Source: Marsupella aquatica (lineage: Eukaryota > Plantae > Marchantiophyta). Taken from it: DNA of 64,000 nt. Below, piece by piece: positions 20,801-49,085 of this stretch. The stretch covers positions 21,613,455 to 21,677,454 of the forward strand of contig OZ316897.1 of assembly GCA_973895155.1 (NCBI GenBank). Direction: 5' to 3'. A program made the position numbers and the translations under genes. The notes beneath the pieces are model-generated. The model was not told where the DNA came from and searched no databases. It was given only the letters and a program-made list of their open reading frames with translations. Every line of letters starts with the position of its first letter. The stretch's first letter is position 1.

Positions 20801-21099
20801 TATTGACAACGAGGTTAATGGTTGCTAGCGAGGTAAAACTAATGGTCAGAGTGGCAAATTGGGAGTATAGTGAGACTTCTACAACAGAAATGAACCTTTT
20901 TCCAGAATGGGATCATGCAATTTTATGTCCAGCGAGGTCGCTAGCCTTCAATCATTGACAAACCATATGAATAAACACAAGCTAGTAAAACACCAGGCGG
21001 ATATGAAAAGGCATAGTCAATGAATCAACTCAGATTTCAAACCCGTTTCAAAGTCATATTTCCAAAAAGTGTATTGCCTCCAATACTTTGTCAAAACTG

Positions 21100-24000
21100 A
21101 CAGTAAGTGAGTAAACTGTCCAGGGACATCGTTCTATTCCCTCAGAAAATCATAAGTCACTTGAATGACTTTCATCCGACTCTATATCATTCCTACTACT
21201 AGTATTGCTCTGGTCACTACTGAAATCCCGATCAGTTGACTCAGCAGACTCATCAACATATTGCTTAACAAGGCATGCCTCATCGTCAACAAAAGGCAAG
21301 CAATATAAATTTTTTCTGGCGCCATGATGTGACCTACGACCTTTGCCTTCCCAGGAGATTACAAAAGCATCATCCGACTGAATTGCCGAGTTCTCTGCAT
21401 AGCAAGGCAGAGTAAACGTCTTCTGAGGAGAAACAATGCAAGATTCTTCAATCTTCCTTTGAAGCCAAAATCTCTCTTCAAAAAACCAGTCGACACGAGA
21501 ATCTCTGAAATCATGAAAACAATAAGAGCACTATCAATGAAATATCCAATCGAAAGACAATAGCAAGCTTCACCAGCCAATTGATTAAAGCAAAGGGATC
21601 TGGTATAAGCGAGAGGACCAGTACATTACTCCAGGTCAAATTCATATCATCCCCATCTTTTGCATCAGGAACATTAGGAGCCCCATCTTTGTTTTTTCCA
21701 CTCTTTGATCCTGCAAGAGAAAATTCATCCTCTGAATCGAAGTCCTCCAATGTTTCAGTGAGGTCTTCAATTTTCTTGTGTCTCTCAAGAACACTCTTCA
21801 ATGCCTTCTCTGCAGCACCATGGAGAACATCCCTATCCTCGACCCCAACAATGAACCTCCCGGAGAGTTCTCCAGCTGAAAATGAACTGCTGTCTCCAAT
21901 ATTCCAATCAAGCACAATGTCTCTAGGCTTTGTGAGAAGCTCCATCACAGCCTGCATGAATCCAACAGACAACCGAGAGGAACCAGAAAAAGCTAACTTT
22001 GCCTTGGTATCCCTTTTTGGATAACAAAGACTCAACATCGTCTTATGTGATGCATCTTCAGACGTTGCCAAAGGGACATACTTCGGGTCTTTTGGGATCT
22101 TCCCATTGACTTCCACTCGACAAAAGACATCCAGGCTTAAGTTGCAAACTTGGAAAAGTACAAAAAAACGTCAATTAATGAATCCAGGAAGGCCAGCGAG
22201 ATCGCTGTCACAAAAAACATACTAAACCATGCATATTTTACACAAATCTCACCTCAATGTTCATGTCTGGCATCCACATTGGGGACCCCAATAAAACATG
22301 GTACTTCCGAAGGTGTTTAAATTTGTTCCTCTGTTCAACAGCTCAGCAAAAATTTGCTTTGTGTGGTTAAATTCTCCACTATGGAGAACGGCCACATACC
22401 CATCATCGGCCAACATGGGCCTCATCACTCCACACAAATAGTAAGGGAGCTTCTCAACCCAGACATTCCATGGGGGAACGTCCACAATCATCGGTAACAC
22501 GAGGCCTCAGCCCAGTCGGAAGAGCTATGAACCCCAGATGGGCACCGGTCCCAGTGTAAGGCTTCCCGTTGATTTTTAAGGGATTCGGGTGTTCGGAAGA
22601 ACTTGAAATCTCCGAAAGCCATTGATCCCCCTCCCCCATCCAAGAAGGTCGAACCTTCTTCATACTTATCGAGTCAGCCGTCAAGCGCAAATTACTCTTT
22701 GCAAGGAAATGTCGCCTTCCATCCAACTGGAGTCCATAGAGTCCCGTGACACCCTCTCGGATTGAAATTTCTTCCTCATCAGAATCTGACAACACTTGAA
22801 CCTTTCGCTTCTTCTTCAACTTGTGGGACCCTGACTTATCACCTCCCGGCTTAGTCACAATTTCAAAATCGGGAGACTCAGGCTCAACAAGATCCTCCTG
22901 GCAACCATTAGTCACAGTCTGAACACTCTCGGAACCCAAAGACTTCCTCCTTTCTAGATACAAAAAAGCAACCTAAGAGCCTCAGGATATGTCATAAACT
23001 TAATCAGGATAGCAGCTTGGGAGAGGTAATAGAAGTAAGCTTCGGAGAGATAAGAATATACTTACTTTTCTTTCTAGAAATCATAGAGCCATCTTTTGAT
23101 ACCTCCTTGGCAACATCCCTCTTCAATTTCCGAGGGCAGCTCCTATCAACAGTTGGTGCCACCCCGAGGCATGCCTGCTCCATCGACACACGACCAGCAA
23201 TTTCTACTTCCGGGTTGCACAATTTAGATTCACTAGTAAAGAATTCTGGGACCAAGCCCTGATTGATCTTTTGAAGCGCAGCTTTCTCTGTCACATCAAA
23301 TGTCAGTGACCAATTCTCCGAATCTAAATACCAGGGACAATGCAGCACCTCCCATTCACTTATCTTCCGCAAGGGTTCAATGTCCTCAATAGGGTACATC
23401 AAGTACTCCCTAAACTTCTCACAACCGGAATCATCTCTTGCATATTGCGCCCATTGAGAGAAACATGTCGGATAACACCACCAAAAAGATCTATTTGCTA
23501 CCTCCCGATCAACAAAAAACCTGTAAACATATCTTTTTGCCCTCCGTAAAAAAGCAGCAATGTCAATCTTCTCCCCAACTTTCGGGTTCCACATGCTCTT
23601 AAAGAACCTTACCTTAACCCACTGCAGGAAATCCTCAAACTCATCATCAATTTCAACAAGGAGGGATGCCTGACTATTCTCTGGGGAAGAAAGAATTCTA
23701 GATTCAGGGATAGTGAGAATAATCTCATAGATTGCTTCACTTAATAAGCACCTCGCAATGGACTCTACCTGTTCCCAGGTTGCCCATCGATGCAACCAGA
23801 GCTTGGTCTCACTATCCAAAAATTGAGATGGGTGGAAATATTGTTTACGCAACTCTGATCTGCACTGTGCTTTGAGAAGAGCGCAACGGAGTTGTGGACT
23901 CAGAGAAGTTACCCCGGTGAAAAGCCTTGCACGATCAAGGCCACACGAAACATTCCCTCTCCCCTTATCATCCGTCCGCTGAGCTTCCTTCCTTTCTTTC

Positions 24001-25076
24001 GCACAATAATTGTGCATCTCAACACATTTCTTGAAGAAATCCCCAAAGTTTGGATTTAGAAGCGGGGCAAACTTTGGAACGTTGACATTCCAGTCAGAGA
24101 GTTGCTCCTTCATCATATCTCGAATTGCAATGTCCTTTGCAACTTTCGACAGAGGTTCACCAAGTTCCTCCTTTAGTGCAAACTTCTTGAGTAAGTCAGC
24201 AGTTTGCGAAGCTATGTTTGCCGCTGAAAGAATATAAATACATGCCTCTAAGGTCATCTGCTTTGAATACCACGACGGCTTCTTCACATTTTGCATCTTC
24301 TGCTAATTAAAATAACTTGAAATTCTCTGGATCAATTGAATCTTTGTAAAGTGAGAGGTCTGTGTGCAAAATCTTCTGGACCCGATCAGCTTCCAGCACC
24401 CACGAATTTTTGACGTGGCATTGTGTCAACCTGACAATGAGGACAAAATTCAGAAAACAACAAGAACAAATCATGCACAAAAAATGGAGGAAAAAGATCA
24501 AATGTGTCAAAGATCTTCTCACCGGTTGAGAGCATGCATTGCATATTCAATATGCACGAAAGTATCCTTCTCTCCTTTGAATATCTTTGAGACAACTCGA
24601 GGATGATATTTGACATTGTGAGGATTCTCAGCAGCAAGCAGGTTCCACGAATGGAGATGGTGATTGCCATCAAAAACACAAAACATTTTATCCTTGGGCA
24701 CAGCAAAATCAGGATGCGAATCACACTCCCTCTCAAAAACTTCACTCTACGCCAACCACATTGGATCCCAGCCCTGTCTGATTGTGTCGTTGAGAAACTG
24801 CACGTTGCCATTCTCATTTGTCATTTGCACATAAAAATGAGGCGCGTCCTCAATGTACCCTTGAGCCCGGAACTCATTCTTCAAAGTCTCAATTGCATTT
24901 GAATCTGTCTGAAGAGACCTCACAAGCTGTATGTTCCGCATTCGACACAATGGAATTTGAGGGGGAACCAGAGGATACCCAAATTCGTCCGGCCCAAACT
25001 AGTAAAGATGGCGGTTAATGACAACTGAGAAAGGCTCGGACTTGGCAGAATCCATCGAAGGTGGCACAATATCCAT
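21100..25076 (-). pseudogene. Multi-exon gene: ParB/Sulfiredoxin-like N-terminal domain, helical middle region, N6/N4 DNA-methyltransferase-like C-terminal domain; disrupted
   Basis: N-term QLVRSL...FCVFDGNHHL; C-term HLGFIALPTG...MLADDGYVAV...MELLTKPRDIVLDWNIGDSSSFSAGELSGRFIVGVED; in-frame stops (~24998, ~24747) and frameshifts; introns ~24431-24522 and ~22135-22252. Confidence 0.6.
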
Positions 25077-28000
25077 AGGATCAACAAGCTTTCGCCTCCT
25101 TGGAGTCTTCAACCCCGAAGCAAGTGCTTTGTGGCTCGTAGAACTCCTGGTCTCTCGACGTTGAGAGGCAGCTGATTTGAGGCAACGGACGAAATAGACT
25201 CAGGGGATGCAAAAGTTGCCATCGACTGATAAGGAGAGGAGAACCACGTAAACGGAATACAAGGAATTGGTACGGTGATTTGCAAAGGAATCCAAAGTCA
25301 CATGTGTTAGGAATCCTAAGCAAGATATTGGGGGAATCCAAATATCTACAGTGTATCTGACATTGACAGGGAATATCAGTATTTAACACCTTCATGCCAA
25401 AGATCCCGCTGGTGCTAACTAACGTTAACAAAGCATCAGTTAACGTTAAGAATGAGTCTAATTACTGCTTAACAACAACTCGTTCGGATGAAATGTACAT
25501 TTGACTCCAACGGTTCGAGTCAATTACTCTATAGTTGACCAACTTGGGTTGGGTGTCCGTTGAAAATAACTTGGGTTGGGTGTCATACAAAATATGCCGA
25601 TGGATGTAGAAAAGGAAGTTTTTATGAAATTTACTCTTCAAAATGAAGTAAACCCTTCCAACGGTAATATAATTTTGTCGTTAGATGACTGATTAGATGA
25701 CTGATTAGATTATTGATAAGGAAAAATAGGCGTAAACCCTAAACTCCATACTTTGTTTAAGACATGTATTTAGATAGTTTTTTGCCAGCAACATTGCTGG
25801 CCAAATTAGTGTTAATGGGGTAGGTTAAAAGTGATGTCTTGTTTTTTAAATGAGCCCTTAATTCTTTCCTAAATTCTAAAATACTTGACAGAAGTCAAAC
25901 AAACTTAACAATGTTTAATGTGTAAACATAACGTTTTGGAAATATATTTGTTTCGATATCCCTCATTTTAATCCCAAACTCAAATAAAAGTCTACCCTAA
26001 ATTTTGGGTGCATTAGGCTAGCAATATCGCTGGCCTGATTCAGGGTTTCTAAAAGGTTTAATTTATGGGACATCTCCAAATCCTCTCCTCTGTTAATGTC
26101 AATTTGTGAGTGAAAATCATATTATAGAATCACTAAAAATAGAGTTGGTTTAATAATAAAGTCCATTTTAAACACAGAAAACTTTCCTTTAGAAATTATG
26201 TCTAGCGAGGTCACTAGCAAAATCCGTTGTTTAACATGAAGCTCCAAGTTCAATAATCCTCCTAATGTACTCCAAGTTCAGTAAACATTTAGGAACAACC
26301 CAAGATATCCTTGTTGTCAACAAAAAACAGTCAATGTTTTAGACGATTACAAGATATAACTTTGGATTATTATGGAGCCCTTTATGATAGCAAATTTAGG
26401 CCAGCGATATTGCTAGCAATAATTCATTTCTTGAAGGTATTAGAGCCGTTGAAGTTTTGTCGTATATGCAACGTTAAAGTGATGTTCCATTTTATTCTAA
26501 ACTTTAATGTCTTCGTATTATTCTATATATTCATCCACTAGAAGAAACCGAGCTATTCTGAGACCTTCCCTTACATGACTTGTGCGAGACCTTCAGAAAT
26601 AAGTGACTCCAAGGTTTAGGGTGTCATGTTCGTCACACCTTGTTGACTGATTTTTGGTGAAGTTTAGGGGAGTCATGTTTTCAACTATTTGGAAAGTTGC
26701 AAGTACAACTCAATTGAGGCAATTACGTTGAAGTTCAACAAGTGACTCTACAATATAGCATTATGGTTTATAGCACAATATTTGAACCTACCAACCTAAA
26801 CCCTGAGCTATGGGATCCGACCCAATACATTGTTAGTGTAGATATACCTATATAATTAGATTACTCTATTTAAACATGGTTAAGTCATGCATTTTAACCA
26901 TTAGTGAGTTTTCCTTGATTATTCCAGGCCAAGAAAATTGCTCATAAGCACCCATTAATTTAGACACCATGCCATCATGCCCCCATTCAACCGCAAAAAG
27001 GCTTCACTATTGGCCGTGGTTACATATGCAAGGGACGTTAATGTGTATTACCGTGGTTACATATGCAAGGGCAGGTTATTTTTACTTATTGCCATGCCCT
27101 ACAAATTGACCAACATGTACCCCCCTCCACACATCGTTCCATGAACCGGGAATAGTCACAATTTACCTTCATATACTCCCCTCCATGCATGTTACATACC
27201 CAATAACGGCACCCCACACACTATGCTGATGGAATGAGCATAAGAACTTGTGACAACTCGTGTGACAGTGCTTACCTTAATCAAGCAAGGATCTGACGGT
27301 TGTAAACTTAATGAAAGGATGATCTGACGGTTGAAAACAAATATGCGCACATTAAAGCAGCTTTAGGCTTTAATGTGTTCCTTCACGGCATTGCCATTCT
27401 GCCTTGGATTCCTTTGGTTTCGCGGACGAGGAGCCAATGCTGCATTCTTTGCAAGGGAAAAGAGGGGGCACTTTGTCACTAAGGCAAAAGCTGCATCGAC
27501 AAATTGCAATCCCGACTGCAAAGTGAGTAGTAGGACGCGAGAAGAGCGAGTTTAGGGTGCTGCATCGACGAAACAGAATGTATTGGAAGGGGACAAGAGC
27601 AATTCTGTGACGCATCGACGATAGGCACTACGGAAGGCACTGTGAAGAGTTTGCACTACGGGAGGCACTCATTCCGACAGAAACTGCCCATCGAATGTGC
27701 TTGCTTGGGCTGAGGTTTAGGCTGCACTAGTAGGAAGAGAATCAGCAAAGCGACGAGGCTTTGGTGTGTCGCCAAGAACAACATTCGGAGCAGAGCAGAG
27801 CAGGGCAGCATTTGCGACATTTGCTGAGTTCTCATTTCGTTGCAGCTGCTATTTGTTGTTGTTGAAGATGGCCGCGGTTTCAGCTACGATTTGCGGTGCT
27901 CCTCTCACTTCAAAGCAGACAGATTCCGGGACCTAGGAAGTGGCCATCGCGAGCGCTCTCACAGAGGTCGAGGACTATCTGGTGCCGTTCCCCCCTTTTT

Positions 28001-30186
28001 TCCATTTCAGCTGGGTTTTCGGTGTTCATATCTCCCGTAGTAGAAGTGGTCATTGAAGAGAAGCTTTTATGAATTACAAAAGTCACTGAGGCATCGGTCA
28101 CTGAGGCATCGGCCTTTGAGTTGCAGTCACTGATGAGCTGTTTGAGTTGCGATGTCTAAAAATGATAGTGGCCCTGACTCCTGCTTATTGACTCCTGCAA
28201 GTTATTTAAGCTGAACTGATCTCAACGATAGAGATCAAGCGTGCTTACTTGAGCTGAACTGTCGTTGAACAGCGACGGGGCGCTGCTAGCAAGAGCTTGG
28301 GTTGCGACTTGCAACCAGGAGCCAAGACAAGTTGCTGCTTTACAACTGGACCGAGAGCTGGTCCTGCAACCTAGGAGGGAGCTACGATCATGCAAAGCTG
28401 AGTCAATGCATGCATGAGGTAATCACGTGTTGCGCCCACATTCTTGCTCCAATCATGTGTCTATTCACTAAAGTCTTCAGAATAAAGTCGGGGCTTATAC
28501 TAGTGCCACATGATTGTAGCGTAACCCCTCTCTCACTCTCACAACATATCACGGCAGAAGTGGGCTTTCACAAAATTTGCAAGAATTGACTATATTAAGT
28601 GGAAGGAAGAGACCCTTTGTCCATGCTGCAGTTGCATCCACATAGACTCTAACTGTGTCAGGATTGGATCCATAATTTGTTTGGCTATCTAGGCTGTGCA
28701 TCCACTGCTCTTTGCTGGATTTGGTGAGGCGGGAGGTTCAGAACGTGCTATGGACAAGGGGCTGAGTGACTTTTGTCCAACTGCGCTGAGCTGACTCGGT
28801 ATGCTAAAGGTTTGATACATCCAGAAGAGGTCAGTATGATCCCTAACCAATGTGAATTGAATATACGGAATGGGATATTTCCTCTAACTTTCAATGTTGC
28901 ATTGTATGACAACCACCATGGGCCATTCTGAAGTATTCAGTGTCTGAGTAATTCCTGGCTTCTAGCTGTGATGTCCGCATGAGCTAGCCCAAGTGAGGTC
29001 CAACTTGGAGCCTTATTAACATTGTTGTTGTGGGGCCGATATAGGAGGTTCCGTCTAGGACTTGCTGTACTGAAGCGAGCTCCTGCTCTGAGGTGCAACG
29101 TGAAGCTGCGCAATTTACATCTAGCTCAGCTCATGTATTGAAGTGAGCTCCTGCTTGGAGGTTCAGAGACAAGGTTTTGTGGAGGTAGGTGACTTCTGTC
29201 CAGCTGCGCTCAACTGAGTGAGTATCCTGAACCTGGAATCCTGAGTGAAGATAGGCCAGCAATGTTGCTAACTTTTTTTTTGCATACTATTATGGTTCCC
29301 AAAGAGGTCTGCTAATGAATGACACATTTGAATTGGCTCAACAAGGAATAGAAGAAGCCATTGCCTTGACATAATAGGTAATAATGGCTCCGATGGAATC
29401 TGTGTTGACAACTTGTGTTTGTTCTAATTGTTTATATCTCAAGAGGGTCGTCAATGAAGCTGACAGTCAGAGAGTCAAAGCTAACTACAAGCTAGCAAAT
29501 AGGTTGAATGCTCCCAAGTTGAGTCAGACAAAAGTTACTAAAACTAGGCCTCTCTCAAATCTGGAAAGTGAAATTCAGCCTGAGACACGCAGCTGAAGGC
29601 CACAAGGATAACTATTTGGCCAGGCTGTCCCTCATTGAAGTCCAAAGTCCTCTTCAGATTGTCTGAACTCCTGTCTGAACTCTTGAACTGGATGAACTCC
29701 TGTCTGAACTCCTGAATTGGATGAAGTCCTGCCTGAATCTGAAGTTCAGATTGTCAATCTCAAATGGCAAGTTCTGAACTCCTGTCTATTGAGCCTAATT
29801 ATTTGTTTATTGTTGTAGTAACATGCATGGCCAATTGGTTTGAATTGAAATGGTGGTTTGAATTTTGTTAAGTGTTTTGAAATTTGCATTCACACTGTCT
29901 AACTAATTTTCTTGTGTGATGCAGATATCTTTGCTATTGACAATCTTGAAAAATCATTTGATCACAGAAGTTTTCAGAACAAACACGGCAGAATTCAGGC
30001 TGAGGATTGGACATTGAGGCTCAAGACATTGAGGTAATAAACTGGTTGTGGTCCGGGTGACAATGTTATCAAATGATGCTTCTTCAGGGGAACTGCCCAT
30101 GTGTAGTTTGTTTTGCCATTTGAAGGGGGTCGTTCACTATATGCAATAGTAATAACTTTGTACATTTGTCTGTTTAATGTTCAGTC

Positions 30187-30867
30187 TTGGTAATGACTAG
30201 GGAGAAGAGGAAAGCCGTAAAAAATGCCACTGAAACAAAAAAGCGGAAACATAATGAGGCAATTGAGCCACATAGCTTGAAGATTGAACGCTGGTCAGAC
30301 ATTGAGAAGCGTCAGTGTAGTCCCCAGCTGTGTGCGATATGTGATTTTCATGGAGATCTGGTCGTGTGTGATGGGTCTTGCCATCATCATTTTCACTATG
30401 TCTGTAGAATTGGTGACACTGTAGGCAGGTGTCCTGCAGTGGTTATTGCACCAGGCAAGGATGGTGAACCCTGGTTTTGTGTAGATTGCAAGAATAAGAT
30501 ACACAAGTGTTTCAAGTGTGGCGTGGTCTCTCCAGCGGTCAGACAGTGCCCTCAGCCATATTGTGTTCGTTTTTATTGTCATGAGTGCTTGCCGCTTGAT
30601 GTGGAGTCTTGCCCCATGCATGCATGTACAGCATGCAAGCAAGATCACAAAGACCCTCATATGGCAAAGGCAATTCAATGCTTGAGATGTCCCACCACCT
30701 GGCATGAGGGTTGCTTAAGAGAGAGTCAACGTCATGGTTTTGCACCAGACAGAGAACCCTGGCTGCACACTGCGCACGGACAGCAGCGGTGGATGATTTA
30801 CTGCCCGAGGCATCCCATTGACCCTGTACTTGGCACACCTACCCATGATCATATCTCCTGGCTTTGA
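30187..30867 (+). CDS. Cys/His-rich PHD-finger cluster protein (NSD/EDM2-like triple PHD), CACTA cargo; probably has upstream exons
   Basis: CAICDFHGDLVVCDGSCHHHFHYVC..WFCVDC..HKCFKC..CPQPYCVRFYCHEC..CPMHACTAC..QCLRCPTTWHEGC..IYCPRH; basic NLS-like KKRKH; cag acceptor just upstream. Confidence 0.8.
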   Translation: MVMTREKRKAVKNATETKKRKHNEAIEPHSLKIERWSDIEKRQCSPQLCAICDFHGDLVVCDGSCHHHFHYVCRIGDTVGRCPAVVIAPGKDGEPWFCVDCKNKIHKCFKCGVVSPAVRQCPQPYCVRFYCHECLPLDVESCPMHACTACKQDHKDPHMAKAIQCLRCPTTWHEGCLRESQRHGFAPDREPWLHTAHGQQRWMIYCPRHPIDPVLGTPTHDHISWL

Positions 30868-31181
30868 TGTGGTGGAGTTTATATTTACCATGCGTTCACT
30901 TTAGGGGTTAGCCAAGTTTTGTCTTAGGCAGGATACCTGCACATTTTAAACTAGTCAAGACTCCAAACTTGCCTATTGTATTATGGTTATTCCCACTGTG
31001 TACACGAATATCATGCATGTTTATGGATGTCATGGTGAATGTGAATGTGGCGATACCCAAGTTTGTTCTGTTGTTGTTGCAATCCTTGTATGAATTGCAT
31101 ATTTAGGCATTCTCATGGATCTGCAGGTGATATCAGGGGTGTCCACTTTTTCCTTCACACTGTCAAAAGGCTGCACTGCAC

Positions 31182-32096
31182 ATGGCTACCTCCAGTAGGA
31201 CACTGAAGAGGCTTGCCTCAGACCTTCCTCCTACACTGTTTGCTGGAGTTAGAGCAATTTTTGTCACTCATACTAGGGGGGAGGACACGAATAGATGGGA
31301 GTTCATGAAAAGACAATTGGTTGAGAATGGAGGGATAGTGTTGAAACAAATCAGTAGAGACACCACACACGTCATCGCTGATGATTGGTGTGATGTGATG
31401 CAGAAGTGGTTTTGGAGCACCATCAACTTTTACAGAGAGTCCTATGGTCTTAAGGTTGTTGATGTCTCTTGGATGTATGACTGTCTAGAATATAGCACCC
31501 TTCACGACCCAACAGAGTATGATATATGGTTGAACAAACGGGCCACCAAAGACATTTTGCAGTTCAAAGCACAATATGATGATGCTTCACAGGGAACTAG
31601 GCAAGAGCTCTTAGAGCATCCTATGCCTGTCATAAACCCCCATGTGCGGGTCATGTTTAGGGGGGTTAAGGTCATGTTTGTGGGTGTTGGGATTCCACCG
31701 GGAAGGTTGAGACGTTTCAAGCACAAAATTCTGCACAGGCAGGGTGAGGTGCATGAACGCCTCATAGATTCTACCACTCATGTGGTCACCCTATCCTATT
31801 CCAGACTTTGTCGTATGGTTGGAAAGACTTTAGTTCGGATGATGGTTAGTAGGGGCCTGCAAGTGGTTTCACCTGCTTGGATGAAAGAGTCACTAGATAG
31901 AGGCATTGTACTTGATGAAGCAGCCTTTGATCTGAATGAGGTGTGGCCTCAAAAGCCTAAGTACAAAAGATGTAAGAGCTGGGATGGAGGTGATGAACCA
32001 TTAGTTAATGATGTACTCAGGGACACAACCACAGAGTGGGAAACCACGAGTGATGAGGACGAATACTCTTCTGACACTGGCGAATACAATGATTAG
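31182..32096 (+). CDS. Tandem BRCT-domain protein with acidic tail, CACTA cargo
   Basis: Two repeats, LFAGV..GG.V...DTTHVI..VVDVSWMYDCL and MFRGV..GEVHERL..TTHVV..VVSPAWMKESL; open 304-aa ORF. Confidence 0.85.
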   Translation: MATSSRTLKRLASDLPPTLFAGVRAIFVTHTRGEDTNRWEFMKRQLVENGGIVLKQISRDTTHVIADDWCDVMQKWFWSTINFYRESYGLKVVDVSWMYDCLEYSTLHDPTEYDIWLNKRATKDILQFKAQYDDASQGTRQELLEHPMPVINPHVRVMFRGVKVMFVGVGIPPGRLRRFKHKILHRQGEVHERLIDSTTHVVTLSYSRLCRMVGKTLVRMMVSRGLQVVSPAWMKESLDRGIVLDEAAFDLNEVWPQKPKYKRCKSWDGGDEPLVNDVLRDTTTEWETTSDEDEYSSDTGEYND

Positions 32097-32140
32097 TTTA
32101 TCTGATGAAGAGCCATGACAGTGTCAGTCATTTAGACAAT

Positions 32141-34121: not shown

Positions 34122-34599
34122 AATGAATACTTGTTAGTGGTGAACTTGTTTCCTTAAAATTCCATCTGTAATAAAAACATTCATTGTCCTCTCATCATGT
34201 CATTCCACAATCAAATCATCTCTTTGCTTTGGATGCTGTTCAAATTTTGTTCAAATTTTGTTCTGTGTTGTGTGTCGTGTTGGCTTTTCCTTAACCAGGG
34301 ATGTGGCTTTGTCCTCATGTCTACATACAATGTTGCAAGGCCCCTACGGAGACAGTACGTACTGAACGGGTTGTTTACAGAGTTGGGGAGACAGTACCTA
34401 CTGAACGGGGTGTTTACAGAGTTGGGCAAACGTCCTTTGCTATTTGTATTGTTGACAACTTCAACTCAGGTACATGACCAATTCACATGACAACAATGCA
34501 CTTCTTCTTTTGACCATTAGTAGGCTACTTTGTTACCCTTTTCACCCATTGTTCATCACTACAGAGTTTGCAGTCTATTACAATGCACCCTCGTCACCA

Positions 34600-37500: not shown

Positions 37501-38324
37501 ATTAACTCCCAACATTTCAATGGATTGCCAAGCTAATGTTGTGAGATTGTTTCTTCAGGGAGTACGAGTCATTGAAGGCTGCCCATCCCACTGTTGGTCC
37601 AGCCTTTCCAAGTTTGGCAGAGTGGATCCGGCTAGCGATTAGGGAGCATCATACAACCCATCCAGACATGGATGCAGACCTTTACCTCCTATCCAATGCC
37701 CCTAGTCTGAGAGTGAAGAGTTACAAACGGATGAGAGCATATGGGAATCACTTTCGAGTGAAGGATGATGAGAGTGCGTACAGGGTGACAAATGACTGCG
37801 GGCTCATTACTGTATTTCAACAGCAGAGCCATGACCATGATAGGGCCTGGATGGAGATGGGATATGTGGGTGAACTAATTGACATATGGGCTCTAGATTA
37901 TGGGGCCATGTCCAGCCCTGTCATTGTTATGAAAGGTTCATGGGTTCGACAGGATTGGGACAGTAATAGGGCTACCATGAAGAGAGACAATGATGGATTC
38001 TTGCTTGCCAATTTTAGAGGGAAATTGCCTGAATGGTCTGAGCCATTTGTCTTTCCCAGTCAGGTGGAGCAAGCTTTCTTCCTGGATGTGGAAGACTCCC
38101 CAGGTTGGCGTGTAGTCTGTCATAAACAGGCTAGGCAACGTCGGATGGAAGGATCTAAACTTGAGTTCCATTTACATTCTCATAGTGCCTTTGATCGTCG
38201 ACGTGCACACCAAGTGTCTGTTCTTCATTATAGCAGGGAGTTCATTCCTGTGACAAGGGTAGAGGCATTTGCTGAAGGGGATCAACTTAATGATCCAGAT
38301 GCCGATAGTGAACCTGTGCCTTGA
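34600..38324 (+). pseudogene. CACTA TnpD/Tnp2 transposase (transposase-associated N-terminus, Transposase_21, DUF4218-like, DUF4216-like), mildly disrupted
   Basis: RMRCPCAIC; YDSIHACPDG; RLGLSLDGVNPF; IADYPAHG; IDVMHIEKN; MKSHDYH; WLYPLERYM; EPFVFPSQVEQAFF; in-frame TAA at 35621-35623, frameshift near 34970; introns ~36407-36539 and ~37443-37558. Confidence 0.92.
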
Positions 38325-38682
38325 GTAACCTGCATTGTTTGCATGGACACAAATAGATTTTGTAATAAATTAATTGTCAAGGAGCAGATGCATGGTCAAG
38401 TAATTGGATTGTGTTTCAGGGTGACCATAGATGACATGTGCTTGTGATCCAATAGGATGGAACAGAGTGACACACATATGTGTGAGTATGAAAGGCAAGC
38501 CATGGAACGTCGAGCATACGTGAATGCCAGAATAGTCGAACTGGAAGCCTCCTTGAAAATGGATGTGGCTGAATTGTAAGGGAACAATTTTCTGCCAAAA
38601 CTTGATGTTAAGTTGGGTGTGACCTGAACATTTGATTGTGGCACTAAAATTGTGATTTGATTCTTGTATTGGTGTATTGCAG

Positions 38683-41600
38683 ATGCACAGACCTTTCAAA
38701 GCAACAAAAGGAGCGTCAAAGGAGGGTGACTAGCAGTACCACTGGACCTGTGCGTCGAAGTGAAAGGTTGAGCAACAAGGTAATACCTACAATGGCAGAA
38801 TGTGCAGATGAGATAGATCCTGCACAAGTGGGTGACCAGGGGAGACAAAACGATCCAGACAATGAGTATTTTCCAGAGGAAATGGATGAGGATGGTGGAT
38901 ATGAAGATGAATACATTGCGGAGCCACCAAAGAAGAAGCAAGTATGTAGTTTTCTAATGATGGTATTGGGTTCAAGTGCTGAGTACAACTTAGGTCTCAT
39001 GCGTTCACTAGCTATGACCATAATGTTTTCTCAAATTATATTTGGTGATGTATGTCATGCAGGGTCTCGTGAGTTCTGCTTTGCTTACTCAACCTATGCC
39101 TCCACGTTCGGTGCCTTCTACTTTGCCTACTCAACCTGTCCCTCCATGTCCCATGCCTTCTGTTTTGCCTACTCAACCTGTCCCTCCACGTCCCGTGCCT
39201 TCTGCTTTGCCTACTCAACTTGTGCATCCACCATACCAAGGTGGGATGAACCCTGGCCGTGGTTGGCAAGGTGGTAATAGAGGTAGATCCCAGATTGGTG
39301 CCCAATACTACGGGAGGGGACAAAGTTCAGGTTTTGGCCACAGCAGAGGTAGATCAGGTCAAAACTCACAGTCTCGTGGGTATGGCTGTCCACCTCAAGC
39401 ATGGGGATGTGAGTATTTCAATTAATTTATATGCCAATCCTTTGCTAATTAGTAGTGTGGAAAATTTGTGAAGGACTGTGAGGTCTAGCAATGAATGCAA
39501 TTTATGTTACGGTTGGATTGAGAGAAGATTACATTGTGTCCTCGCTTGAATTGCATGTAGATTCTGCTCAACCTGATTGGGCAAATGCTCCTAATGAGGA
39601 GTACCAATGTCCGCCAGGACAAACTTGGGTGGAACCAGGTTGGGAGGATGCTGATGGGACTTGGAATGAACAAGGCTGGGAAGGTGGTGCTGGTAATTGG
39701 CAGGGGTATCAAAATATGTCAGCCCCTATGAATGCAGGAAGAGGAACAGGTAAAGTCTCCACTTGTTTGCATTGGAGGGTAAGTCACTTTTTTATAGTCC
39801 ATTCAAATGGGCTTTTCAAGGTTCATGTTTAAGGAATGATGGCAAATGTGTGTGCAGGTTGGGCGGGTGAAGGATCAAAAGTATTCATTAACGCCCCTAC
39901 GCAGATGCAGCATGGAAGGGGGTCAGGTAAATTTGAAAGTGGATAGCAGGTTTACCAATTTACTAAGTCATGAAGAATGTTGATGTTGTCAATCCATGCT
40001 ATACAGTGGGTACATAATGACTAGAAAAGAAGCATGTACTGGGTTGGGCAGGTGGCGAACAGTCACAACAATATCAGAATTTTGTCCCTGCACAGATGCC
40101 TATAGGTGGAGGTGCAGGTATATGTATGTTTTATCTTTTGTGGTCCCCTGGAATTAAAGACTTGTTTGTGCAGATTGCATGTAACTATGTTTTGAGATGA
40201 ATGATTGCCACCTAGGTACAAGCTTGTAATTGCATCTGTTTGATACATGAATGTTTGGCAATGGGAATGGCTTTGTGAAGGTGACTTCAGAACTCCAAGT
40301 AGGGTGAATCGAGGGGTGCCCATTACACCCCCCAGTACTACAGAGAGCAGTGCACAGGGGGAAGTAACAAAGAAAGGGACAGTAAAATTGAATGACAGAC
40401 AATGGGTGGATGCTGAGTGTCCTCGCAAGAATCGATGGCATGCTGATTTGAAAGCTGAAGTTCTACGTTGGTTGGATGTGAGTATTATTAATTTTAAAAA
40501 ACAACATGCCCAAGATTGGAAGACGGTTTGTCAAATATTGCTGCTCGATGGAATTATGTGGGCAGTGATGATGGAGTGGAAATTGCATGCTTGGAAAGTA
40601 CAGCAAGCAAGATTATTAAACAGGAGAGATGGAGGATGCACAAGGCATGGAAAGAAGGTGGGAAGAAGCCAGATATGCCACCACTAGCAAGCTGTGATGA
40701 TAAAGTGTGGAAAAGATTGGTAGACTATTTTGTGACCGATGCTTCCAAAAAGAAGAGTGCACAGATGATTGATGCACGATTGAGTGTTCAGAACCCTAAC
40801 CTGACAGGAAGAACCGGCATAGCCCCCACAGCAAAATGCTTGGTAAGAACCGGGAATGATAGTATATTCATTTACTGATGATTATAAGTACTATTGAGTT
40901 TGTTGTTGAAGTAATTCTAAATTGCAAGGGATCTGATGTTAAGAGTTCTTGATGTGCAGAAAGCCCAGTTGGGGCAAAGCCCTTCAAAAGAAGAGTTGAG
41001 GGCTGAGATATTGAATAACAAGTGTGAGGCATCTGAGTCGTCAAAGGCTGTAAGTACATATTTTAGGGTTCCAAGTTGAATGACCTTCAAGGGAAGAGTA
41101 TAGGCCACACATACATGGAATTGTATCCTTACCCAACTGTGGATTGTGAGTGACTCATTGTTTTTCTGTTATTATGTAGGGAGGTGGATCTTCATTGACA
41201 CAGATCAATGAGCGTTTGAAGTTTGTGGAGACATGTCTGCCAGAGGTGAATGATTGATTGAGTCAGCTGACTGAGTTGTTCCATGGTAAGCTTGCATCAT
41301 TAATGGAAGCCATAGTGTCGGTGAGAAGTAAGATTGAAAGCAGCTTTGGAGGAGTTCCACCATCACCGCTTGAGGTGGCAAAGTCTATGCACTCTTCTGG
41401 CATTCCAGTGGTATCTGCAGTTCAAGGTAAGACTTTATATATATTTGTTGGATATGATGCTAGAAATCTAGGTTATGACTCATTAGAATGGTTATGATGA
41501 CTTGGTATTTGACATTGTTAATGTGACATATATTGTTGTGGTGTCCCATAGAGAGAGAAGCAGATGTTGAGCAAAGCAAATTTGCTCACTTGAAGAAGAG

Positions 41601-42369
41601 TCGATGCAACTTAGAGGCAACCAAGTTGTAGCCTATTGATAACCGGGATTTGGCAGAGGGCAATGATGAACCATCTTTGCTCAAGGTTGACATTGTTGAA
41701 GGTGATATGAATTCAAATGTTGGGGTAGAGGAACAATATACTTTCCCTGACAATGATAATGTTGAGCCAGATACATCCTATATGGAAGAATGTTTATGGA
41801 ATGTGGACCCTGATCTTGGTCCCATTCCAAAATTACCTGAATTGACAACAACAGGTGGGTTTGCTAGTGTGCCCATGCCAACAGAGATGTCTGCTCCTAT
41901 GGCCATCCCTAGGAAGGAGTCTACTTCTGTGGCCATCCCATGTGAAGTGCCCCTGGAGACAGACTTGACTATTGTGAATTCAAAGAAGGGGAGCATGCGC
42001 ACCAGAAGCAAGTCTACTGGAAGCAAAGTCACAACAAGGGCAACCTACAAACCTCCAAGGTCAGTGGTGAAGGAGAAATCTAAGGTGGAAACAGTGAAGG
42101 CACCAAATGCAGAGGGGCATTCTAAGTTGTTGGCTATTGATGATAGTGGGACATGTGTAGGATTTGGCAAGGTGCAAGCAGGTTCCACAACTTTCCATGG
42201 GAGAAAAGTTCCACCTGGTTATTCTGTAGTGTTAATAGACTTACTTGTGGTTCCAAAGGCTGCTCTCCCTTTTCCCAACACCAATGATGATCCTCCTCAA
42301 AGAGTTCTTCTTGATGCAATAGGTTCTACAATACTGTGGCCAATCAAGTTTATAGAGGATGAACAGTAA
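38683..42369 (+). CDS. CACTA TnpA-like multi-exon protein (Pro/Gly-rich N-terminus, Transposase_24-like middle, C-terminal FHG-containing domain); probably disrupted
   Basis: W..W..LVDYF....KKKSAQMIDAR..NPNLTGRTG; C-terminal TTFHGRKVPPGYSVV..LPFP..DAIGSTILWP; several GT-AG introns; frameshift near 40535. Confidence 0.7.
39075..39225 (+). repeat. 42-bp coding tandem repeat (PTQPVPPRPVPSAL) x~3.5
   Basis: Directly visible inside a TnpA-like exon. Confidence 0.8.
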
Positions 42370-43339
42370 AGTCATGCATACAGCCATGTGTTTGTAGTTT
42401 TAGTTTCATGCTTTCTGTATGTAGAAAGCATAAGAACCCTTACCTTTGACATGATATTAGTTAATATGAATATTTTGGTTTGAGTTCTCCCAAATGACTA
42501 GGTATGTAGGTTAGAAGCAGCTGTCTGTCTAGAGCTCTTGTCTGTCTAGAGCTCCTGTATTGGTGTATTGCAGATGCACAGACATTTTGCAAGATCATGA
42601 ATTGATCGCATTAGTCTTGTATCATTGTGAACTATAATTTGGATAAATTCTGTTGCAATGAATGCTTCATTTTGAAAATGTGTTCAACTCATTCCGTATC
42701 ATGCCTTTGAATGTGTTGAATGCACCTTATGTTTCATTATACTCGTGCAATTGTCATGAATGCACGATACTTTGAAAACTATGACTAGAATAAAATAGTC
42801 ATAGACAAGAGTGCATCTCACAATTAATACCACAAATACTAACACAAGACCCATAAGTCCTCAACAATCGCCTTATAAGTCATGTTCATTACTAGGCCAT
42901 GTAGTTTCCTTCAACGATCTTAGTTATAAACACTACTAACACCAGATCCAAAGGATGTGTTGACAACTTGGAGATGTTAAAACTGATACTTCTAAAATGA
43001 CTACACATAGTCACAACTTAGTCGCAAACACCAGTAATCTCAGTTCGTCGGAGGTCATGGTAGTAAGAGAGGCATGACTGATGGTAGTCACAGTGTAGTC
43101 ACATTAGATGTGTGGTTTTATGCTCTATTTTAGTCAGCACCTAGTCACAGTTTGGGTATCATCCATGTCACGATGTACAGTAGTATTAGTGACTTTCCAT
43201 ATTTTAGTCACATATGCATTTAGATAACTTGTGCGGTCTCAACCAGGGTCACGGTTGAGGAAGTCACATTGGTGTCACAAGGACTAAAAATAGTCACAAT
43301 TCCGGTCTCAACAAGGCTTGGTTTCTTCTAGTGATCCAT

Positions 43340-46300
43340 GATGTTTGTGACATTTGGGTTCTTGTCTTGGTCCTCATTTGATGGCTCCGAGCGTCATCTT
43401 CTGGCGTCGGAGCACTGGAGACATTGCTACTCTTTCATCTGTGAGAAAGATCATGTGACCGAGGCCTTTCTTTTGACAAGATTTGGGCTCAATAAGTGTG
43501 ATTTCATTTTGAGATTGTTCTTTCTTGTTTCACTTCATGGATCAAGGAAGGACGAATTAATTTCAGGAACTCTACTTGGTGAAAGAGTTTGGGAGGTTGC
43601 TTCCGGAGATGTGGTGGAGGTTATATCAGGCAAAGATGATTTTCCAGAGCCTTTCCAGAACCCTCAAGGAAAAGTGCTTGTAGACCTGGACTCTCCCCCG
43701 GGGAGAGAAACGAATGTCCAGGCCTCTAGTTTTGAGTTTACAACTCTTGAGGGTACTAATTCTGTTTTTGGAAGTTGTTCTACAAAATTGGAAGTAGATA
43801 CTACTCTTCCAAGTGCTCCGGGATGTCATCTTTTGCAGAAAGTCTACAAAATTGGTGCGCGTGAAGCGTTTTTGAGCATTACTGGGGCAAGTGAGCTAAC
43901 AAGATTTAGAAGAGATGTCTCGTGGGTTGATGTCCAAGTTGATCGTCTTCCAACAAGTTACAATGGAGTCAAGATTTGGTCGCGGTCAAGGGCTTCTTGA
44001 CATGGACCGCGACAATGATGGCTACCCTTGGACCCGCTTGGTCACTACTTTGGCTAACCTAAAGCCACGTAATCACTGGTCTGTTTTCAAGGTCCGTTGT
44101 AGTGGTGTTGTGCAATGCCAAAATTTGAACTGTTCAAGGTTCAAGGAGACAGGAATGAGGAATGAAGCGGCATTTTGTGGAAGATCACTAATGACCGATG
44201 TCTTCCAGCCGGGAAATCTGGTTCCGAAAGGAGGTTTGGTTTGTGGCTTTTGTGATGAGAGACCTTATTGTGTCAGGCCTTGTCCAACAATAATGTTTTA
44301 TGTTTATGAAAAGCCAACTTTGGACTCTCATGTCTCAAAACACATGTCTAGACTTGCAGTGCATATGGGAGTTCATGATCATCCGATTCGAACAGGGAAG
44401 TGTCGAGTTGCTAAAAAAAGGCGGAAGATGTTATTCAAGAAGTTCAGTCAGCTCATCCCTTGGCAACCCCTTCCCGTGTGAAGAATATTTCAATAGGTAC
44501 ATTGATATCTCTTCTCCACCCTGAGGCATGTCACGATCTTTCAAAAGAAGAGGAGGTGGAATTGTGGAACTCGATGAAAGTTGTGTCCTCACCGGAAAAA
44601 TTCCATGCAATTTTCCGGAGCATTAAAATTGGGAATCCCAAGAAAGGTGAGTTCGGATTCGCTTTGTGACATGCAAATGCGCGTGAGATTTCCATTTGTA
44701 CAGCATTTCTTGTTCCCTGGCCAGGCTAGCAAGTCCATTCAAGCGCATGTATTCAAGATGAGTACCAAAGGTCCCGGTTCTGGAGTTGACATTCTCAATC
44801 GGATGCAAAAAGGTGGAACTTTAGAGGGAGCTTGGGTGAGTTTTGACATGATGCACAGAATAACTACTGGTTGGCTAACTTTTAGTGCTCACGTATACGA
44901 TCACACTTATCGCGCTCTTTGTACTATCTTCACTTGTGAATTGAAAGCCGAGGATGTTGATTCACTGGAAACTGCATGGCGTTTAATGTTGGAAGTTGCT
45001 ATTGAGAATGGTATTTCCAATGTAAACATAGCTGGTTTTATGGCTGACAATGCTGAAGCTGGATGGATCGCTGTGAGAAATGTTTTCTTTGATGGTGTTT
45101 GTCTCCCTGAGAAAGAACATAGTGATGCATTCCATTTCTTGCAGTCACTAAGACGTCATACCGTGGAGGGAATTCATGAAGGGAAACACTCCGAACACTA
45201 CCAAATGTGGGAGAAATTTAGGAATGCACCCTCATATGTTCAAGCTTACAAGGTGGCTAACGATATTCAAGAGTGGTGGAAGTGTGGGAATTGTCACCCT
45301 GGGAAATTGAGATCTTTGCAAGGCTGGATTGCTTGGTGGGTTGTCCGATGGTGACAGCGGGGAAACTTCTTCAGACTGGTAAGTAAACTCGTTGTTTTTG
45401 GCTAGCAATGTTGCTAGCATTCCTTTGTGTATGAATGTTATCTTCAAATCAAGTATGTGCCTCCCAATGATTGTGTTTGTTTATGTCTGGACTTCAGACT
45501 CAAACAACCAAGGAGTCAGCGTTGATGCCAAATTGTACTAGAGCCGAATCTGTACATGGTTCAATGAGAGCTTGCCAAATGAAGAAGAAGATTGGACTGA
45601 TTGAAGCTTGTGAGCTTGATCAAAATCGTGATGGTGGGCAGATTGCTGCCTTTGCTGCGTACATTGAAGGATGCCACAGGGGACATGGCCGGACCTACCA
45701 TATTGAACTTGCATATAGGAATGCAAATACTCTAGGATCCCTTGATGCTTTTGAGAAAGCAACCAATCTTCTGCTTGAATCATCTCCAAAATATGAGTTC
45801 CATCGCACTCAACCACTTCATGGAGATCTTTGCACAAAGTCCAAAAAACAAAAAGGCCAAGCTTTGGCTAGAGTTGGTGCTGAAGACTCTCATCGACATG
45901 ATAAGGTGATGCGCACGGAGGCGGTGACAAGAGGCGTACATCCAAGAAATTTATATTCTGATTTCCGGAGTGTCAATGTCGTGGAAGAGAGCGACAAGTT
46001 GAAGGAGAGTTTGGGCATACTCCATCCTTCAACATTCTCTAGTTGTCCAGATCCATCCATCGTGATTCTTCTTTCCGATAATGAAGGGAATGACACTGAG
46101 AGCTCAGGACATGACACTTTTGAAATTCCTAAGCCATTGTCACAACAACATGTATCTCCTGTCCGTCCAGAGGAACCAGTTAATGTTTCACCAAGGAGAA
46201 TACCTGCGGTAAATGAAGTTGATGTCCCATTTGGTACTTGGCACTTAAGGCAGTGCGGGAAAGGAAATGGTCTGGAAGAGATGAGTGTCGAAACTTAATC

Positions 46301-47061
46301 AAGGAAGTAGGTTTCATACTCGTCTTGCGGTGTGGTTGGGGTTGCAATCCATGGTTTGAGGATGACTTCACCACATCCTCAACTCTTATACTTCTGCCCA
46401 AACAATGTCTGCCACAAGACCAGGGGGCGCAAGTCAATTGCCCAACTTCCCTTAGTACCCCCGTCTCTAAAAGTTCTTCGAGGCAACAGACTTAACTCCT
46501 CCTGAAATCAGCTTCTTGATTGGCTTGGGTTTTCAGATTGATGGTCTCTTTTACATGGATTGCGAACCAGATGGCAGTGTTGCTCCTCCAGGTCGCGTGG
46601 AACTTTGAATTGACGTGAACTCTTTTCCAGAAAAGGTTGATGTAAACTATTTGAATAGACGACTGAGGATGCGGAATGGGAAGGGTGCTCGTCAACGTTT
46701 CAACTTCACTGCAGAACTTGTTAAAAGGATTCAGTCTGCAAATGAAGAGCAAATGAGGATTGTGGCTTGTGAAAAGATCATCCAAGGTAACGGATGGGGA
46801 AGACAGTTTTTGATTGCGACGCATGAAAACAACCCTAGTAAATCTAGTAAATATTGGATTCAGTTGTGTGTCTTCCCATGTTGCTCCTGTGAGGATTTCT
46901 ATAAGCGGCATTCGCATGGAAAGCCTTACATGTCTTGCAAACATATCCTTTGGGTTTACAAGAATGTTTACCATTTGAACCTAGAGACCTCGGATGTAGT
47001 CAAGCAGCCTATTTTAACTGTTGCTGAAGTTTCCGATCTGATCCAAAGGGGCCGGAGTTGA
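43340..47061 (+). pseudogene. Mutator-like (MULE) transposase with GCM-like Zn DNA-binding domain, DDE core and C-terminal SWIM finger; frameshifted
   Basis: DGYPW..KVRCSGVVQC..C..CGFC..C..PC..GVHDHP (GCM/WRKY-like); VSFDMMH...FMADNAEAGW..FH...AESVH (D-D-E); CSCEDF..CKHILW (SWIM); frameshifts at ~44000, 44420, 44660, 46260; TGA at 45352; intron from 45379. Confidence 0.8.
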
Positions 47062-48826
47062 GGTTTGATGTTATCCACTTTAGAGTGAGGTTTGGTTTTA
47101 ATAAGGTTTTCATTGGTTTTTAATATATATGTAAGTACCGTTGGGAGTAGACTTTTTTGTGTGTTGGTAGGGAGAGATCATATTTACACTCCATATGAAG
47201 TTCCCTTTAATTTATTTATAAAACACCAGATATTGGTTCATCAGGTTTGCTAGCGAGGTCGCTAGCTATATTTTTGAAAAGTTTTGTAGGTTCATGATTT
47301 GGACCCTGGTTTGTTACTCATTGAGAAAACTATCAGTGACACAATCACATACCCTGATAAGGTCGGATATCATGTCTTTACAGACTTGGCTTTTTTTACA
47401 GTTGGCAACTCTCCCTGAAATCACTGCCAACCTTTTATGTTGGTTATGGTGCCAATTTTGTGTGTTTATCTGAGATACTGATGACTCCCAATCTCCAGGC
47501 CCATCATTTAAATTGCAAGTAAAACTCCTTGCCAAGTGCTTTGGTGATGATCTTTATATCTATTTTGGATTGTCCAATTTGTTAAAAAAATAAAATTACA
47601 TTGACATACTTCACTCGAAAGGTTTCTTAAACAAACATTAGTCATTCAAATATGAACAGACTGTTGGATGGGTTTATGCTAGTGAGGCTTGCTGTTACTA
47701 GCGGCCAACAAGTCCAAACTTTGGTTTGAGCAAAAAATCACCCATTTCAAGGAATTTTTTTACTCGTAACAGCAAAAAATTTACTGTTACGAGCAAATTT
47801 TTTCCTGTTTCCTCGCATGGTAGTCATACCCGTTAGTTTCATTTGGAACAAAGTCGTTGTGTTTGGAGTGTGCTGTGGAGCCATGAATTTTGGAAAGTAC
47901 TCTAATGGGGTCCGTAACCACCTCTTTCCACATTCTAATAGTCTAGCTTTTCTCCCCTATCCTTCCAGTTTCCTCCACAATTTCAGGAAAAAGCTACTTT
48001 TAAAGGGGCAGGTGAGATTTAAGACAAATTCAAATTTCATGGCAGTCAAGTTGAACTTTCTTTACCAAGAGACATAGAAAGCAAATATCAAAATGTACTT
48101 GCATTGCGTGTGATGGGCATTAGCTTGGACCATAAGTTCAGGAAAAGCAAAATAAGAGAAAAGTCTTTCAAGACTTTAAGTATAATTATAGTAAAGTCCT
48201 GTTGTTCATAGGCTGGGTGGGGGATTGTGCCAGAATGGCCCTCAATAGGTGTGAAGTAGTCGCCACGAGAAAAAAACGTATGAGGTAGTAACCAAGAGAG
48301 GCTTCAAACGAAAGTCGCAAGAAACCTGTGGCAGAGTGGCTTCAGACGATAGTCCTCAGAAAGTCGTGGCAGTGTGGTTTATTTTGTCAAAGTATGGTCT
48401 TCACGATTAATATGTATAGATTCCTTGCTACTTCCGTAGGTCCGGCCCTAGGTGCGTCCAGAGGTCTTCCATGCTGGACTAGTGGAGGTGCAACAGGGCT
48501 TTAATTCGCGTTCAGGCATGGCCCACTCTCTCCTGCATGGGTTTACACGGTAACAGGGCCGCGTCCACGCATGGCCCACTCTCACCTGCATGGGTTAGGT
48601 TATGTAGTAGTTAGCAAGAACTTCATCTGGAAATCGGGGATGGGGATGGGGATGAGGTCTGGACCCACATTTCTTTCAAATCTTTATCTGGAGTAACCTT
48701 CCGCTGACAACGAGCGATTCAAAGTCACGCGCTGCGTGGTCAAAGTATTTCTTCGCACTCAACTGATATATATAGTCGTGGGCATATTTTAGAGAATCTT
48801 CATCTTTAGCTCCTTCTAGTGGCTAC

Positions 48827-48833: not shown

Positions 48834-49085
48834 GCGAGGAGAAAGATCGAGAACAATTCACTCACCTGCAAACAGATGACAGCTAGCTTGGAAAAGCTCG
48901 AGACCTCGCAGTCTAGCACCAGGAGCGAACCAGTTCAGTACTTGGTGGCAATCTACGAATGTGACTTGCAGCAGAACTGAGCACCAGGAGCTAACCAGTT
49001 CAGTACTTGGTGGCAATTATCGAACGTGACTTGAAGCAGGGGCCAGGCCGAAGTTACTGCAGGTCCTGGAGGGCCAAACACAAGT

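Follow-up and report, generated by a model that had tools for sequence, protein, structure and literature searches.

The stretch of DNA analysed here, referred to below as the window, comprises 64 kb of the genome of the liverwort Marsupella aquatica (contig OZ316897.1, positions 21,613,455 to 21,677,454 of the forward strand) and contains a transposon with two genes on opposite strands, which, because of the motifs of its transposase and a 9-bp target-site duplication, is best called a Mutator-like element (MULE) on sequence grounds. It extends from 20770 to 47831 and measures 10,261 bp without a nested CACTA/EnSpm element (26536–43333, + strand) that is inserted just before the ATG of the transposase. 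The transposase gene (43338–47061, + strand) is broken and encodes a Cys/His zinc finger, D-D-(C/D)xxH-E motifs and a C-terminal SWIM-like motif, the D-D-(C/D)xxH-E and SWIM patterns being judged from the usual consensus; no Pfam family passed for the transposase and no PDB sequence matched it, SWIM reaching an E value of 0.17 in sequence P0006, and the label of ‘GCM domain’ given in the original prediction found support in neither Pfam nor PDB. The sole other gene of the element (21150–25076, − strand) is spliced and also broken, with in-frame stops and frameshifts in the window copy, and encodes an accessory protein composed of a ParB/Srx-fold head, a helical middle, a beta-class methyltransferase (MTase)-like domain and a short conserved last exon. 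Dispersed through the non-coding DNA of this element is an 18-bp palindrome, GCYAGCRANNTYGCTRGC, which we regard as a somewhat probable self-recognition site for the accessory protein, with binding of the one by the other being predicted.

Nine matches to GCYAGCRANNTYGCTRGC with no more than two mismatches (0–2) were found in the window, all of them at the positions originally listed, compared with an average of 0.10, and never more than 2, in 100 dinucleotide shuffles. By position weight matrix the nine sites scored 21.3–28.7 bits and the next-best site of the window 13.3 bits (at 9679), and when each site was omitted in turn from the matrix it still ranked within the top nine. When the arms alone were sought (GCYAGC/GCTRGC, with up to one mismatch), a spacer of 6 gave eight matches, whereas each other spacer from 0 to 15 gave none or one. 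Specificity was judged on the 64 kb of the window together with 101.6 kb of fetched loci: beyond the MULE and the CACTA element the window has no full site in its remaining approximately 37 kb, in keeping with the original observation of none outside 20.2–47.7 kb, and none was found in approximately 99 kb of other loci. None of the 13 tandem-repeat rows in 20000–48500 overlaps any palindrome site, and we found neither flanking homology nor a tandem repeat linking the sites. At positions 7 and 12, the R/Y degeneracy is for the most part what CpG decay of GCYAGC-GA-NN-TC-GCTRGC would produce.

Eight of the nine sites belong to the MULE, and all eight are non-coding (p ~7e-5, with exon spans being approximate), arranged as one per end, one intronic site in each gene and four between the divergent start codons. 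The subterminal sites, on the left at 20928–20945 and on the right at 47249–47266, were both identified by pattern and weight matrix. The site at 22192–22209 lies in an intron of the accessory gene that splits the MTase-like domain and the site at 45401–45418 in an intron of the transposase (45380–45498); both had been described as intronic, and homologues indeed continue across both points, although the acceptor of the intron holding 22192 is not clean in the window copy. The region between the divergent start codons measures 1.46 kb and holds sites at 25784–25801 (most other copies having G and C at positions 7 and 12, respectively), 26017–26034 (G at position 7 in most other copies), 26201–26218 (the right arm being intact in most other copies) and 26400–26417, which would lie approximately 120 bp 5′ of the transposase start with the CACTA element discounted; the gaps between these four measure 233, 184 and 199 bp, in keeping with the originally stated spacing of roughly 180–230 bp. 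Three weaker sites in the original list, near 20228, 20824 and 47678, do exist, but as 18-mers they lack significance (per 64 kb, 18, 132 and 720 scores at least as good, respectively, are expected) and 20228 falls outside the element, which starts at 20770. The second of these is a half site (20824–20835, + strand) 55 bp inside the left end of the MULE and the third a degenerate site with a 1-nt insertion (47678–47696), neither being significant alone.

The boundaries of the MULE were drawn from GGG ends with an in-register 12-mer, forming a degenerate terminal inverted repeat, and from the 9-bp target-site duplication GTTAGTTTC, present at 20761–20769 and identically at 47832–47840. Among 190 exact 9-mer pairs around both genes, this pair gave a terminal similarity of 20/30 compared with 14/30 for the runner-up, and the depth of aligned contigs goes up in the bin containing 20770. 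Its length falls within the 8–11 bp range that the accessible text of PMC6446971 gives for MULEs. An earlier choice of ends at 20041/47706 (GGCCGC) was dropped in favour of the 20770/47831 pair, and assignment to Zisupton/KDZ was rejected, as the 9-bp duplication is unlike the 7–8 bp stated in the accessible part of PMC12730594 and the transposase has no KDZ Pfam match. In three of four runs, contigs pass from 26537 directly into the transposase start, corresponding to an empty CACTA site, and because other copies thus lack the CACTA element both genes can be placed in one 10,261-bp element. The element is multi-copy, since thousands of variant contigs align on it, with the reservation that contig depth is not copy number, that the runs come from two studies and that one of them may derive from the sample of the window itself. 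Close to the right end and within the element, at 47759–47809, is an imperfect inverted repeat of approximately 50 bp to which the left end has no counterpart. To the left of the element, a low-copy stretch (20218–20600) holds the 20228 half site and a 70-amino-acid open frame (20263–20472, + strand), and has a related copy elsewhere in run X4.

The nested CACTA element (16.8 kb) has CACTAGAAGAAACC ends, a 3-bp duplication ATC and matches to Pfam Transposase_21 and DUF4218. It contains the ninth palindrome site (29255–29272), as had been stated; by chance, 0.0008 sites of this kind are expected there, and a captured MULE fragment as its origin was ruled out by the absence of flanking homology to the MULE. 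An accessory gene of this element (30178–32096, + strand) encodes NSD-like PHD fingers and two BRCT domains, an unusual chromatin or DNA-damage cargo, and site 29255 lies just upstream of it in the same arm. A 2-kb non-autonomous CACTA (32141–34121) is in turn nested in the large one; it has CACTAGTACAT ends, the duplication AAT and a 24-bp subterminal repeat arranged in inverted arrays.

Conservation of the palindrome was examined in relatives and in other copies. Thirteen metagenome loci with a transposase relative were compared, and the closest of these, L001 (transposase identity 63% at the amino acid and 69% at the nucleotide level), carries three GCTAG[C/T]-N6-GCTAGC sites, one with a mismatch, in the intron equivalent to that of site 45401. 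The spacers are GCCGGC or GCTGGC in L001 and AATGTT at site 45401, whereas the arms and the 6-bp spacing are kept. The two best of these sites have a matrix p of ~6e-4 per 2-kb locus, and the three are probably duplicates from one event. All three (L001 1103–1306) sit within longer palindromes of about 26–42 bp with ATTGCTAG...CTAGCAAT, as if the site had been extended or duplicated locally. In the remaining 12 of the 13 loci no palindrome was found, and the relatives with long flanks (L004/L009 and L006–L008) have neither accessory gene nor palindrome.

Diverged contigs of run X1 (depth ~85) align on the intergenic region at a piece ending at 25806, at 26194–26222 and at 26427–26537, skipping the DNA between; the first piece ends just past site 25784 and the second, of 29 bp, contains site 26201. 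Among the 40 of 95 differences between copies that were listed for 25740–26575, five are on inner site positions, one (26213) restores an arm and no arm is broken. The paired changes at 25790 and 25795 look compensatory, a kind of change for which the original prediction had proposed to look, but they were not taken as a sign of selection, as each also equals an independent CpG decay in the window copy. A better hint than the changes in site 25784 is the skew of CpG decay toward inner positions, which among the nine sites counts 8:1 for inner compared with arm positions (p=0.02, or 0.055 with 47678 added). Taken with the cluster at spacer 6, the L001 intron sites and the aligned islands in the diverged contigs bear out the description of the motif as a conserved, element-associated, non-coding palindrome.

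The ParB/Srx-fold head of the accessory protein is encoded by an exon at 24522–25076 (− strand), and its AlphaFold2 model has a predicted local distance difference test value of 92. In a VIA comparison of the head, the top 12 of 14 rows were of ParB/Srx type, including KorB (Z 7.4, root-mean-square deviation 2.5, 92 aligned), PadC (Z 7.1) and sulfiredoxin (Srx; Z 6.2), together with Atu1540, SspE, BrxU and DndI, which we take to be of this type; the top Foldseek rows were all ParB/Noc/Srx, with E values of at least 0.047. The nucleotide-binding boxes, assigned by position and partly from the known fold, are well kept among aligned family members, the Box I arginine (R53) in 36/38, Box II GNHR in 34/38 and the Box III asparagine (N184) in 35/38; the window copy reads GNHH, with H in place of the Box II arginine. 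The middle domain (23007–24300, − strand; approx. 450 amino acids) gave a confident helical model in a homologue, and this 456-amino-acid model returned no Foldseek match and no clear solved relative by VIA, which does not by itself make the fold a new one. A representative search with an X read-through query found 271 relatives of the accessory protein, and a first homologue search with the middle domain in ‘longer’ mode yielded 0 of 5,570 candidates. The named homologues returned were all from Riccia sorocarpa (10 of the 150 matches listed in one search were looked up), in which a full-length homologue, P0163 (1,207 amino acids), is accompanied by many dispersed copies.

Elsewhere, relatives were scarce. 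The ESM Atlas gave no usable match for the window piece of the accessory protein, PHROGs no consistent family, and PDB sequence searches nothing significant for either the accessory protein or the transposase. A phage tblastn returned just weak matches to the S-adenosylmethionine (SAM)-binding stretch of DNA methylases (E at least 0.03), and no relative of the transposase or of the ParB part was present in the viral contigs or prokaryote genomes searched. A ParA-binding motif was found in none of 43 accessory sequences, and no P-loop family was seen among the element open reading frames scanned with Pfam, so that no parA gene was detected in the element. Residues 150–700 of P0163 have language-model features resembling those of fungal DUF3723 clusters (score 0.82, under 0.9), and no DUF3723 match was obtained with Pfam in 46 aligned accessory members; this is a hint of DUF3723 as related ParB-like cargo.

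The MTase-like domain (21640–22560, − strand) shows the motif order IV, target-recognition domain, I, and PF01555 was matched at E ≤0.1 by 16 of 21 aligned members (best 1.9e-7), the window piece alone giving 0.069. Motif IV reads D-[LM]-[PS]-[ST] in the family and S/A-L-P-T in the window clade (A-L-P-T in the window copy), and the catalytic consensus is (D/N/S)PP(Y/F/W). The aromatic residue of this motif is catalytic in N4-cytosine and N6-adenine methyltransferases, and it occurs in none of the 14 rows aligned at the motif. Motif I is eroded in the window clade (D-W-N-I-G-D-S in the window copy), and the SAM motif DFAGGWG is retained in Riccia copies. Since motif IV lacks the aromatic residue, methyl transfer by this tail appears doubtful. 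The predicted ParB–MTase partner of the palindrome is thus recognizable in a ParB/Srx-fold head with nucleotide-binding boxes and a PF01555-type tail, but not in its catalytic residue, so that the suggested delivery of an MTase would likely not amount to the writing of N4-methylcytosine (4mC) or N6-methyladenine (6mA). Many of the MTase-part copies of Riccia sorocarpa (P0161–P0192) have been named automatically ‘Trimethylguanosine synthase’ in UniRef, and these are likely mis-annotated transposon cargo.

The symmetry of the site and its fixed spacing are suited to binding by a dimer. We propose that a dimer of the accessory protein would grip the two GC(C/T)AGC arms, probably by means of its helical middle, and that the ParB head would gate this binding as a nucleotide switch. 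Protein bound at the spaced sites could keep both genes of the element regulated and, by analogy with VANC in VANDAL elements, would likely shield the element from host silencing, the MTase-like tail more likely serving as a DNA- or SAM-binding module than as a 4mC/6mA writer. Sliding from the sites in the manner of KorB or ParB, again by analogy, would be the weakest step and is doubtful, because, according to the accessible text of PMC12704722, a clamp is not what many ParB-fold proteins form and the bacterial ParB-fold/MTase fusions surveyed were ATP binders; nucleotide specificity is not predictable from sequence for such proteins. The boldest form of the idea, in which a land-plant transposon would possess its own ParB/parS-type system, with a nucleotide-gated clamp loading at the 18-bp palindrome, sliding and carrying a catalytically repurposed MTase fold against silencing, and with the nested CACTA freeloading on the protein, is in our judgement rather unlikely. 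Of the load-and-spread self-recognition first suggested, the conserved site and the ParB-fold partner stand, but no parS-reading helix–turn–helix (HTH) was recognized and a true site lies within an unrelated CACTA.

Several observations weigh against self-recognition by the accessory protein, beyond the ParB-fold survey just cited. The fold scores of the head are modest (best Foldseek E 0.047; VIA Z under 8), no parS-reading HTH was recognized in the middle domain by Foldseek or VIA, and KorB residues 151–252 aligned to this domain with Z 4.0 (root-mean-square deviation 4.0, 101 aligned), which is noise level for helical models. On the side of conservation, the islands in diverged contigs cover just two of the four intergenic sites and the arm-breaking count of 0 is not significant against the approximately 2.1 expected with 40 of 95 differences shown. 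L001 is just 2 kb long, too short to tell whether an accessory gene is present, and the long-flank relatives amount to about two independent loci, ~30% identical and decayed, which makes their joint lack of gene and site weak evidence. The site in the CACTA element counts against the reading as well, and so do two points that speak for another binder: the word GCGAGG is common to the degenerate termini of the MULE and to sites 20824, 20928, 26201 and 47249, and a Mutator transposase, that of AtMu1c, can alone bind DNA, hypomethylate and activate cognate copies, as reported in the accessible part of bioRxiv 10.64898/2026.08.24.746577. The palindromes might accordingly serve as operators inside the element, bound by the transposase through its Cys/His zinc finger in auto-regulation, trans-activation or synapsis, leaving the accessory protein a bystander, and the motif conservation in L001 is indeed seen beside a transposase. 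We regard the transposase as a serious rival, though an unlikely one: the MULE termini are without any GCYAGC arm, L001 keeps the arm plus G/C and not GCGAGG, 12 of the 13 transposase-bearing loci lack the motif (though they are mostly distant), and AtMu1c binding peaks at terminal repeats and not in introns, according to the same partly accessible source.

The strong site in an unrelated CACTA without flanking homology, and the clustering of four sites in a divergent promoter region, might also be accounted for if the palindrome were recognized by a transcription or chromatin factor of the host and had been gathered in non-coding DNA by several transposon families. This is quite improbable in view of the lack of sites in the ~37 kb of window DNA beyond both elements and in ~99 kb of other loci, and a single borrowed site would fit the accessory protein too, as VANC6 motifs are known in the unrelated AT9TSD1 (PMC5735166, in the text accessible). 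A reading in which the accessory protein itself writes 4mC/6mA, as an active methyltransferase that loads at the palindromes and lays a protective mark along the element, shares its binding step with self-recognition as we propose it, and draws on the PF01555 matches, on the SAM motif of the Riccia copies, on the same activity being the published guess for an Ectocarpus protein (PMC12477816, accessible part) and on the possession of 4mC enzymes by liverworts (MpDN4MT1, with a TSPPY motif; 10.1101/2021.02.12.428880, accessible part); against the absence of the motif IV aromatic residue in all 14 rows and the erosion of motif I in the window clade, we judge it very improbable. The palindromes could, finally, act as hairpins in RNA or single-strand DNA (as signals for splicing or replication), or be neutral relics of small fold-back insertions, and the longer inverted repeats around the L001 sites (up to ~42 bp) do fold strongly (z −6.4). 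Folding of the two window introns, however, is no stronger than that of shuffled sequences (z 0.17 and −1.05), four of the sites lie between the genes, the sites are joined by neither tandem repeats nor flanking homology, and it is the arm sequence itself and not mere complementarity that is kept between families, which makes such an origin highly improbable.

Self-recognition of ParB-like/parS type in transposons is already in print as a hypothesis for algal elements. The Ectocarpus element Sola1-1_Ec32 has a 1,104-amino-acid ParB-like plus N4/N6 MTase gene opposite its transposase, proposed to bind and modify its own element (PMC12477816, accessible text). The MULE resembles it in having a protein of ~1,100–1,200 amino acids, ParB-like and of PF01555 type, on the strand opposite the transposase in one element, but, compared by description, it is Mutator-like, from a land plant and eroded in its catalytic motif, whereas the other belongs to the Sola superfamily of a brown alga; neither a binding site nor the term ‘palindrom’ was found in the accessible part of that description. 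In the Plavaka (EnSpm) elements of Bostrychia, a ParB-like PAG3 with inverted repeats occurs together with PAG2, with homologues in Chondrus Mutator elements, and the authors propose parS-like self-binding and draw the VANDAL comparison (10.1101/2025.02.11.637652, as far as accessible). PAG3 shares with our system a ParB-like accessory gene and inverted repeats on the same element. From the accessible text, however, its ParB part is fused to a 2-oxoglutarate (2OG) oxygenase, with the N6-MTase on a separate SET-fused gene, in contrast with ParB and MTase-like parts in one protein here, and its repeats form tandem arrays beside the gene, whereas ours are single sites scattered over the termini, an intron of either gene and the promoter region.

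VANDAL elements with VANC are likewise MULEs that carry an accessory gene and duplicate 9 bp of their target, and in the accessible part of PMC5735166 their motif is found in introns, intergenic and terminal non-coding DNA and also in an unrelated element; unlike the 18-bp palindrome without tandem repeat described here, VANC motifs are 8–9-bp non-palindromic words multiplied by tandem repeats, and the accessory protein here, unlike VANC, has a ParB/Srx fold. KorB/OB of plasmid RK2 and ParB/parS offer the likeness of a ParB-fold head and a palindromic site of ~16–18 bp on the same mobile element (PMC11790492; PMC12704722, both as far as accessible), and for KorB/OB the precedent is a regulatory rather than a partition role (PMC11790492, accessible part). 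Unlike these, the present system has no recognized HTH or C-terminal dimerization domain, no ParA-binding motif and no parA, and is set in eukaryotic chromatin. The DUF3723 of fungal Starships (PMC11162782, accessible part) is comparable as mobile-element cargo with a language-model feature resemblance, a lead only. PMC4738411, in its accessible part, regards DIRS1 MTase domains as likely inactive, and a land-plant transposon ParB–MTase was not found there. The system resembles VANDAL/VANC in layout and possibly KorB/OB in mechanism, without belonging to either.

A literature search that did not extend to most subscription journals turned up no paper on such an element, with a defined and dispersed palindrome, in a land plant; what is new here is that the variant is from a land plant, that its sites are dispersed and that they share one defined sequence. 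ParB-like accessory genes of brown and red algal transposons have been flagged as candidates, and neither a defined site nor a test was found in the accessible parts of their descriptions. The locus supplies one conserved sequence of 18 bp with known positions, a family from land plants and the full-length homologue P0163 of Riccia, so that binding, nucleotide use and sliding are open to a direct test. If self-recognition by the accessory protein is true, a bacterial-type DNA clamp would be working in eukaryotic chromatin, and it would provide a new sequence-specific handle on plant epigenomes.

Outside the elements, inverted homologies of 80–90% link 3900–4440 with 13640–14130 and 12891–13112 with 54019–54542, and with a chlorophyll a/b-binding-like frame at 12997–13719 (− strand) these suggest inverted paralogous gene copies. 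The repeat block is flanked by an AIG1/dynamin-like GTPase frame (2023–3435, − strand) and a CAP/PR-1-like gene (49035–49990, + strand).

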